Notes under the pieces: model-generated
What the model was told of the DNA's origin: nothing
Seen by the model: only the letters and a program-made list of their open reading frames with translations
The model's database searches: none
Assembly: GCF_003018115.1 (NCBI RefSeq)
Contig: NZ_CP027457.1
Reading direction: 5' to 3' (one strand)
DNA from: Escherichia coli
Lineage (GTDB): Bacteria; Pseudomonadota; Gammaproteobacteria; Enterobacterales; Enterobacteriaceae
Length of the DNA stretch: 64,000 nucleotides
Part shown: in pieces, positions 8,501 through 9,814 of the stretch
How the letters are laid out: each line of letters starts with the position of its first letter
Numbering within the stretch: position 1 is the first letter of the stretch
Program-made: the position numbers and the translations under genes

Positions 8501-9736
8501 TTTATAGTCCTTACTTTATAAAACTCACAGGAAGAGGAAATTACGTAAATACGGAATGTACAGAAACGCCGTACCACGGTATTAATAAAAGAGATAACCA
8601 GCAGCACAGACAACCTGATAAAACTATTTCGTATTACCTCATTACAGTAATAGGGTAATTATTCAGAATACAGTAAGACTCTCTTAAACTGAGGACCAGA
8701 ACGAATTACAATAAAAAACACACCTCATATAATTGAGTTTAAGAAAGCACCATTCAATTACTTACAGGAAATAATCTGATCTTCACAAAAGTCAGCATTG
8801 AATAGCCACAGGCAACATCGCTATTAGTATTGTCGTACCATTAAGTAAAAACAGCGACTCTGCAGAGAGCAGCCTACAGATATTTAATCAGTAGTATAAA
8901 AGAATAATGACATACAGACCATACGCTACACACCATAAGAAGATTATTTCATACAAAAAAGATAATATTTACCCATAAACTGTAACGGAGCTATAACGTA
9001 CGAACTAAAGACAATATACTCTAATAGTGTGCTGGTACGTAACTAGTGTTAAATACAAACCAGACATACATTCAGTGGATTAACTTTCTCAATATTACGC
9101 TATGAGTGTAGTAACATAATTTACACATAACTAAACCCCATACACCACCACACTGTAGCATATGGGGATAGACGCATTACGCACATACAGAATACTCAGC
9201 ATAAAGAGGAGTGACATTACGATAAAAAGAGGTAAGTTATACCACAGATACCACCACACCCATTAATAATACTAATTAACCTTAATTATTCATGGTATAT
9301 GAAACCATATGTAGTTCTCTGGGAACTAACTAACCCAACAAGAAAAATAATCGCTATATAAAAACTTCAGTTAATACTCATTTGTTTTGTTGACTCAGCA
9401 TATACTAAGTGACCAGTAATCAGGATAATCACACTTACATAACCTGTAAAAATGGATAAGAAGTATAATCTACTAACAGAATTCACCAGACAAGAGCTTA
9501 CACCGAATTACAAATTATGTATTAATATCAAAACTGGCATATTTTACAGATGCAATGAACATGCAATCCATCAGTTTAATGGAGGCAGTATGCACATCTA
9601 TCCATGAATGGGATAGCACCAGGAGCACGAAATAATTAGATGCGGATCACAAAAACATACCATTTTAATTGAAAAACAAAATAAACAAACAAATCAAAGT
9701 GTTACATAATTTTCTTTTGCCAGACATAGATAATAC

Positions 9737-9776
9737 CCCTGCTAATTTTGCTAATGGTTAGCAAAATTAGCAGGGT
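9737..9776 (-). terminator. Perfect palindromic hairpin downstream of the 620-aa gene (putative terminator)
   Basis: CCCTGCTAATTTTGCTA-atgg-TAGCAAAATTAGCAGGG, 17-bp perfect stem, about 40 bp past the stop at 9815. Confidence 0.45.
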
Positions 9777-9814
9777 ATATAAAGATTATTGACCCAAAAC
9801 ACACTCAGATGAAT

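Follow-up and report, generated by a model that had tools for sequence, protein, structure and literature searches.

A conserved AT-rich core, the candidate cis site of a YfjJ-like Rep-type protein, in a long non-coding tract of an Escherichia coli island

Two-tyrosine HUH initiators of the phiX174 gpA type carry an HUH motif and a YxxxYxxK motif, and their origin is a short, conserved, AT-rich cis site lying by the initiator gene in a fixed orientation. At the nic and bind loci of pMV158, and in geminiviruses and circoviruses with their nonanucleotide and iterons, an invariant core stands beside repeats that differ by lineage, and in ICEBs1 the origin of transfer (oriT) used by NicK is immediately upstream of the gene for this HUH-type nickase, on an integrase-bearing element. 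We discuss here an AT-rich tract at positions 8501-9814 of a 64,000-nt stretch of E. coli DNA (the window; contig NZ_CP027457.1 of RefSeq assembly GCF_003018115.1), which is 100% identical to chromosomal sequence of E. coli 2014C-4135. It lies upstream of a gene for a YfjJ-like HUH protein, and our main subject is a 22-nt conserved core within it that we propose as a candidate DNA target of that protein. The main features are these:

8501 to 9814, no strand assigned: the entire AT-rich non-coding tract, a mosaic in which one module goes with yfjJ (8501 to about 9292) and the other with the 620-aa gene (about 9293 to 9814).
9266 to 9287, minus strand: the conserved core, AATTAAGGTTAATTAGTATTAT, 22 nt, the only strongly constrained element of the tract.
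7907 to 8500, minus strand: the YfjJ-like HUH (Rep-like) gene of 197 aa, annotated 'inovirus-type Gp2 / YagK-YfjJ', the constant downstream partner of the core.
9815 to 11677, minus strand: the 620-aa gene, a hypothetical and a core gene of the island, the upstream neighbour of the tract.

As in the phiX174 group, a protein with HUH and YxxxYxxK motifs is encoded beside a short, conserved, AT-rich site of fixed orientation. The locus differs in belonging to a chromosomal integrative island of tens of kb and not to a small phage or plasmid, in having a core without significant match to the 30-bp phiX174 origin, and in that nicking is something we infer. The invariant core beside lineage-specific repeats recalls pMV158 and the geminiviruses and circoviruses, but no conserved stem-loop presents the core and the repeats are missing in several lineages. 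The CRESS nonanucleotide, TAGTATTAC / TAATATTAC, is resembled by TAGTATTAT / TAATATTAT at 8 of 9 positions, a likeness that comes cheaply in AT-rich DNA. The position of the core upstream of an HUH-type gene, on an integrase-bearing element that could replicate after excision, is as in ICEBs1, but the YfjJ-like proteins are much smaller (about 190 aa) and there are no conjugation or mobilisation genes nearby.

On the yfjJ-sense strand the core reads AATT-AAGGTTAATTAGTATTAT. The 19-mer TAATAATACTAATTAACCT (plus strand, 9264-9282) is invariant in 16 of 16 E. coli and E. albertii copies, and in the conservation profile the core is an isolated peak flanked by the most indel-rich DNA of the tract. 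At up to 3 mismatches there is no second copy in the window, including at the other junction of the inverted segment described below. Loci of YfjJ-like proteins in other genera were retrieved through the protein alone. All of those with enough upstream sequence have a gene-free AT-rich gap of 206-1446 nt upstream of the gene, and from genus to genus only a block of 22-46 nt can still be aligned, whose position is exactly that of the core. The inter-genus consensus on the gene strand is AATT-AAGGTTAATTA(G/A)TATTAT, usually with RGAAGT 3-6 nt later. Six of the 11 testable loci (Erwinia, Citrobacter, Y. enterocolitica, Y. intermedia and two others) have the core with 0-2 mismatches, upstream and in sense orientation, while none of 600 shuffles reached 2 mismatches or fewer; one further locus has a form with a 1-nt deletion.

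A scan of metagenome and viral contigs with a degenerate pattern gave 127 loci. A YfjJ-like protein is encoded at 35 of them, each time with the motif on the strand of the gene and upstream of it. Among the other 92 motif loci, 5 are family members in which the contig ends before the gene, and the rest are without the typical flanks and are chance matches. The core-linked proteins are 42-57% identical to that of the window, and those of the metagenome loci go down to about 39% identity to the closest query homologue. Between core and start codon there are 134-143 nt in lineages with a short gap and 250 to about 1130 nt in the others, the window having 765 nt. The upstream neighbour also varies, being yfjI, the 620-aa gene or divergent genes, and since the yfjJ-like gene is always the partner whatever lies upstream, the DUF3987 helicase is excluded as the constant partner. 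Indeed in Erwinia and Yersinia the core and yfjJ-like gene are present with no DUF3987 gene within 6 kb.

When GTDB-representative genomes were scanned with an exact 18-mer, E. albertii gave the only true homologue. The core sequence is in no paper of the searchable literature, and the core is a previously undescribed cis element. The same 18-mer is found, on the viral strand and at the edge of the main intergenic region (17-34 and 4127-4144), in a circular gokushovirus contig with a 121-nt terminal overlap and genes for capsid, gpA-type Rep and pilot protein (L034; L numbers are our handles for individual loci). This could be chance or a shared origin-like sequence.

From the linkage, orientation and conservation of the core, and from the motifs of the protein, we infer that the YfjJ-like Rep-type protein may bind and nick the core, and that the core may be its cis site, an origin or nick site. 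We hold this reading tentatively, at a little short of an even chance, and rank it first because the core is single, fixed in orientation, near-invariant, AT-rich and tied to a gene of the HUH two-tyrosine type. On this view the tract serves the YfjJ-like HUH gene, in an island with a P4-type integrase, AlpA and DUF3987, as its upstream non-coding leader and spacer, and nearly all of the tract would be AT-rich filler, about neutral and resized by indels and short repeat expansion. The core would be the recognition and nicking site, at which rolling-circle replication of the excised island, or its transfer, would originate, and the lineage-specific repeats by it would be additional binding sites. 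It may also overlap the promoter of the gene, in which case the protein would autoregulate. The spread of distances, from 134 to about 1130 nt, would be easily tolerated by the cis site of an enzyme that acts on DNA, and the lineage-specific repeats that follow the core in some lineages would fit a Rep-type cis site. A preliminary description of the window, made from its letters and ORFs, had offered a regulatory or origin-like region belonging to the Rep-like gene as one option for the tract. That suggestion fits the core, of about 22-35 nt, with its adjacent repeats, and does not extend to the whole 1.3 kb, which is mostly about neutral.

The label 'HUH Rep-like' given there to the gene is supported by the motifs of the protein, which are FRIDFAY, LHIHFIGY (HUH) and YALSYLAK (YxxxYxxK). 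H86, H88, Y152, Y156 and K159 are near-invariant in 31 homologues, as is a C-terminal RGRPR, encoded within 7907-7960 of the window. RGRPR resembles an AT-hook, and such a tail would suit binding of the AT-rich core. The two-tyrosine YxxxYxxK motif was verified by us in phiX174 gpA (YVAKYVNK) and in gokushovirus Rep. More remote searches gave less: the Pfam REP_ORF2-G2P match is weak (E=0.002), hhalign against gokushovirus (microvirus) Rep aligns the HUH region only, with a probability of 4.7%, and the PDB sequence search gave nothing meaningful, with no match in NCBIfam or PADLOC. The AlphaFold2 (AF2) model has a pLDDT of 87, and its top Foldseek matches include HUH nuclease domains at E values of 1e-3 or weaker.

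The repeats beside the core are represented in the window by one feature:

9239 to 9258, minus strand: short direct repeats TGTGGTGGTATC / TGTGGTAT, directly after the core, with a copy number that differs between close relatives (L003, L041).

The window-type repeat, TGTGGT(G)GTAT, has 2-4 copies among close relatives, and in O157-type copies the repeat after the core is TGTTAT. A lineage of 62% identity (L032) has an array of TGTAAT-type units with a 13-nt period (z=7.3), and near-identical loci of this lineage have 2 or 3 tandem copies of CTGTAATT. In Citrobacter (L028) an array with a 15-nt period follows the core (z=4.7). In the long-tract lineages the 100 nt that follow the core are enriched in direct 6-mer repeats (P=0.013) and the DNA before the core is not, the enrichment in the E. 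coli lineages of this type being weaker than in the L032 and Citrobacter arrays. The words TGTAA, GTAAT, CTATC and GAAGT are enriched downstream of the core on the sense strand only, with scores that are inflated by kinship among lineages. Iterons were rejected as a universal feature, the repeats being lineage-dependent. In Y. enterocolitica (L029, 5760-5848) there are strong direct 6-mer repeats upstream of the core and not downstream (13 observed, 0.6 expected).

Several results weigh against a cis site for the YfjJ-like protein. There is no conserved hairpin around the core, the 5-bp TTAAT/ATTAA stem being broken in Yersinia, L118, L128 and L032; hairpin presentation of the nick site is not universal among origins of rolling-circle replication. 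Similarity to the phiX174 origin is mostly non-significant: local alignment gave P=0.07-0.13 in five comparisons and P=0.007 for the window form, and the registers differ. A recognisable core is absent from 4 of the 11 protein-retrieved loci. In Erwinia and Yersinia the repeats are either missing or not significant, and the periodicity in the window lineage has P=0.17. The support of fold searches for an HUH fold is only modest, and the circularity test of contigs with gene plus motif gave no circular contig carrying both. Lastly the core has promoter-like properties, with TATTAT matching the -10 hexamer at 5 of 6 positions and, in the lineages with a short gap, an almost constant spacing of 134-143 nt. 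Autoregulation at the origin is common among Rep proteins, so that origin and promoter functions could coexist.

The main rival reading, which we think somewhat less likely, is that the core is only the promoter or operator of the yfjJ-like gene or operon, with TATTAT as the -10 hexamer, the invariant AAGGTTAATTAG binding an activator or repressor, for example a helix-turn-helix (HTH) protein of AlpA type, and the remainder a long 5' untranslated leader. Several features of this leader are needed here:

8501 to 8860, minus strand: the proximal yfjJ leader, better conserved (column conservation 0.81-1.00) and containing the ribosome-binding region.
Complement of about 8508 to 8513, minus strand: the yfjJ ribosome-binding region, TAAGGA.
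8687 to 8658, minus strand: a weak promoter-like site within the proximal leader.
8880 to 9240, no strand assigned: the dispensable, indel-rich middle of the leader (column conservation 0.41-0.89, gap fraction up to 0.50).
9136 to 9167, minus strand: a terminator-like hairpin (stem of 13 bp, then TTTAGTT), lying some 100 nt downstream of the core.

A promoter at the core would account for its being always upstream of the gene and in sense orientation, for the near constancy of the spacing in short-gap lineages, and for the invariance of TATTAT within it, with A at position 2 and T at position 6, and in Yersinia (L029) TTGATG-16-TATTAT passes a sigma-70 scan. However Erwinia, Citrobacter, L032 and the window are all without a -35 hexamer at 16-18 nt, and the bases before TATTAT are TAG and not TGn. 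The implied leaders, of 570-1130 nt, are neutral and have large indels and even insertion sequence (IS) insertions. The core also hardly changes among loci whose proteins are down to about 40% identical, and such constancy would be unusual for an operator co-evolving with its regulator. If there is a separate yfjJ promoter distinct from the core, it would fall in 8501-8860.

There is a precedent in the AlpA protein of P. aeruginosa, for which the regulator site is between -35 and -10 with a terminator downstream (PMC9371919), and the window lineage has the terminator-like hairpin at 9136-9167, downstream of the core. As in antitermination by lambda Q or this AlpA, a conserved block lies directly upstream of a -10-like hexamer and AlpA-family genes are in the same islands, but most of our lineages are without a -35, and the AlpA-type proteins of the islands are short HTH proteins of 70-95 aa, whereas P. 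aeruginosa AlpA is larger and Q-like. The hairpin is lineage-specific, being absent in O157-type copies and in a region that is gapped in about one third of copies, and in L027, L028, L029 and L032 the sense strand has no terminator on the way from core to start codon. An antitermination leader of Q/AlpA type has no support beyond part of the E. coli lineages, the terminator-like hairpin being present only there and in none of the four others scanned.

With regard to the tract as a whole, there is no ORF (open reading frame) of at least 60 aa on either strand, the longest being one of 51 aa, and at 1,314 nt it is the longest such stretch of the window. Its GC content is 0.334-0.354, as against 0.494 across the window, and its plus strand is strongly A-rich (AT skew +0.21 to +0.26). 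The preliminary description had reported an ORF-free tract of 1.3 kb and about one-third GC (0.33 by our count) between the Rep-like and 620-aa genes, and was right as to both the tract and its flanks. An ORF of at least 60 aa is also missing in 40% of shuffles of the tract, compared with 2% of random sequences of window-average composition; the lack of a long ORF is unsurprising for the base composition of the tract. The unusual feature is the long AT-rich non-coding stretch amid gene-dense DNA, rather than the lack of ORFs as such. In E. coli-type long tracts the sense strand is T-rich and C-poor (T 0.41, C 0.15) on either side of the core, and this skew is absent from the short upstream gaps of Erwinia, Citrobacter and Yersinia (L027, L028, L029). 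The second-longest stretch of the window without an ORF of at least 60 aa is 21440-22312 (873 nt, GC 0.33-0.38), where the window is non-collinear with the annotation of NZ_CP027310.1.

Two features of the distal tract bear on the question of a hidden gene or RNA:

9452 to 9607, plus strand: an ORF of 51 aa, rejected as a gene.
9737 to 9775, minus strand: a perfect 18-bp hairpin, 40 nt past the stop codon of the 620-aa gene.

That the tract encodes an unannotated small RNA (sRNA) or small protein is very unlikely. The 51-aa ORF is intact in close relatives, but in a relative of 88% identity (L108) it has no start codon and is interrupted by a 95-nt insertion, and the differences between the two by codon position (7, 7 and 5) show no codon-position bias. 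No ORF of at least 20 aa is common to more than 8 of 16 copies. The terminator-like hairpins on the minus strand might speak for an RNA, but that at 9136-9167 is missing in about one third of copies, and the one at 9737-9775 is probably the intrinsic terminator of the 620-aa gene, with a minimum free energy of -31.7 kcal/mol (z=-4.9) and preserved in L009 despite base changes on both arms. In Rfam at E<=1, with 7000-12500 searched, the only hit was a sub-threshold match to mir-87 on this same hairpin (21 bits against a gathering score of 49 bits), which we rejected as spurious. Sliding-window RNAalifold on both strands, with column shuffles, gave weak consensus folds (0 to -17 kcal/mol per 100 columns) without consistent compensatory changes or convincing covariation, and large z-scores arose only where the shuffles fold at about 0. 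A tRNA/tmRNA scan and a tandem-repeat finder found nothing on the tract.

Still less probable is an explanation by gene decay, or by an origin, made up of iterons and an AT-rich region, that would belong to the DUF3987 primase-helicase, as in the SaPI/PICI family of islands or P4. The common E. coli layout, described below, has the tract directly after yfjI, the DUF3987 gene, and the DUF3987 protein matches phage helicase/primase families. Against such an origin there are the Erwinia and Yersinia loci without a nearby DUF3987 gene, and in the window this gene is 2.7 kb from the tract and on the opposite strand. A decayed gene was rejected on the indels, which are not multiples of three, the lack of a conserved reading frame, and the lack of any annotated homologue, feature or pseudogene beneath the tract among the E. 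coli genome and plasmid copies listed, a full translated search of the tract not having been made. The decayed gene remnants, small proteins and sRNAs that the preliminary description had allowed for therefore found no support: the indel sizes, the copies listed and the phage collection speak against the first, the loss of the 51-aa ORF in L108 and the lack of any conserved small ORF against the second, and the lack of an Rfam family and the weak folds against the third. Judging from these comparisons the tract is genuine non-coding DNA, with no pseudogene, small-protein gene or structured RNA.

Of 5,426 complete E. coli genomes about 1,585 (about 29%) carry the proximal part of the tract (8501 to about 9300), at 73-95% identity, and these carriers include O157:H7, O121 and O104:H4 strains, UTI89 and a derivative of Nissle 1917. 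The distal 530 nt or so, which come with the 620-aa gene, are restricted to about 69 genomes. K-12 is without the tract, the yfjI-yfjJ and yagL-yagK intergenic regions of K-12 show no similarity to it, and K-12 YfjJ and YagK belong to a distant subfamily. Indels between copies are of 1, 2, 14, 18, 35 and about 100 nt (10-16 copies aligned), and O157:H7-type copies have large deletions in the middle of the leader (8880-9240). Mean pairwise identity over the proximal 570 nt (8501-9070) is 0.873, and 0.887 at third-codon positions of yfjJ. On these rates the tract as a whole is best seen as an unconstrained spacer, most of it changing at about the neutral rate. The relative L108 has its 95-nt insertion in the distal tract at about 8050-8150 of its own sequence, possibly a small mobile repeat.

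The phage collection has no homologue of the tract, and in the plasmid collection all matches are E. coli records in which this module is again unannotated; one of these has an IncFIB replicon, and the plasmid records with the module are typed as non-mobilizable. One record, 'plasmid B' of E. coli M11 (NZ_CP010208.1, L168), is a circular record of 56 kb with no typed replicon, carrying the island module together with the chromosomal genes proAB, phoE, crl and dinB, and may be an excised or mis-assembled chromosomal segment.

The distal 532 nt are 97-99% identical to the window in loci whose proximal part is only about 80% identical, which makes the tract a mosaic produced by recombination, with its joint at about 9290. 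This junction bears on a further explanation, which we consider unlikely, in which the tract is an AT-rich, horizontally acquired spacer, probably silenced by H-NS, and the core a nucleation, host-factor or module-recombination site with no specific link to YfjJ. The GC content (0.33 against 0.49) and the neutrality of most of the tract agree with a spacer, and the module boundary lies at the core, where two island layouts are joined. But a strict tie to a single gene family, side and strand in several genera would not be expected of a site for H-NS or another host factor, and near-perfect conservation over 18-22 nt is far tighter than in the degenerate motifs of nucleoid proteins. The junction itself may result from the invariant core having been a homology anchor, and not be the cause of it.

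The common layout, with all genes on one strand, is integrase, 605-aa gene, HTH gene, yfjI (DUF3987), an unannotated gap of 820-1010 nt and yfjJ, and is found in O157:H7, O121, UTI89 and many other strains; in O157:H7 and O121 a 'TOTE' primase-domain gene is next after yfjJ. The island of the window also encodes an HTH gene, a DUF3987 gene and a tyrosine integrase. Its 620-aa protein has no match in NCBIfam, PADLOC or PHROGs but is 28% identical (E=3e-68) to the protein of the 605-aa gene that sits between the integrase and HTH genes in the common layout, and because of this homology we take the HTH-yfjI-620-aa segment to be inverted in the window. A Citrobacter-type locus has the same layout as the window, which is thus an old alternative architecture. 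The family of 605-627-aa proteins (9815-11677 in the window, 10442-12259 in L005, 3573-5456 in L028) is a core component of integrase/AlpA/DUF3987 islands.

The YfjJ/YagK 'inovirus Gp2-like' genes recur in the core gene set of integrase/AlpA islands, and for one subfamily there is now a candidate DNA target, which makes the function of the YfjJ-like protein directly testable. The pairing of core and protein could account for amplification or movement of the excised islands. In annotating such loci, what is left of the 1.3 kb is best treated as spacer and not as a hidden gene. A Gp2-like protein has been listed beside AlpA among the uncharacterised core genes of these islands (bioRxiv 10.1101/2024.08.29.610337), and according to another preprint an integrase and a Gp2-family gene rose in copy number in Nissle as it passed through the gut. 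These gains are compatible with replication of the island, but are anecdotal.

A more far-reaching idea, which we regard as improbable, is that the YfjJ-like protein and the core form a module generating single-stranded DNA for AlpA/integrase islands, including pathogenicity islands of O157:H7, uropathogenic E. coli and Nissle, the excised island being nicked at the core and rolled off as a single strand. If so the island could be amplified or leave the cell, for instance by commandeering the machinery of filamentous phages or of conjugation, and the T-rich, C-poor bias and expanding repeats would be scars of a frequent single-stranded state.

Two other gene groups lie near the islands. Zinc-ribbon genes (Zn_ribbon_11/DUF7828) are found downstream of yfjJ-like genes in several genera (6729-7536 in the window, 5045-5476 in L162, 6950-7366 in L164 and 2053-2846 in L165), one copy in the source genome of the window being annotated as frameshifted. 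A cdiB/cdiA locus for contact-dependent inhibition is a few kb beyond the yfjJ side of the island in the source genome (L001 1-3088, 5' of position 1 of the window), and likewise a few kb beyond it on plasmid pCP127 of E. coli EC93 (L169 1-2786).

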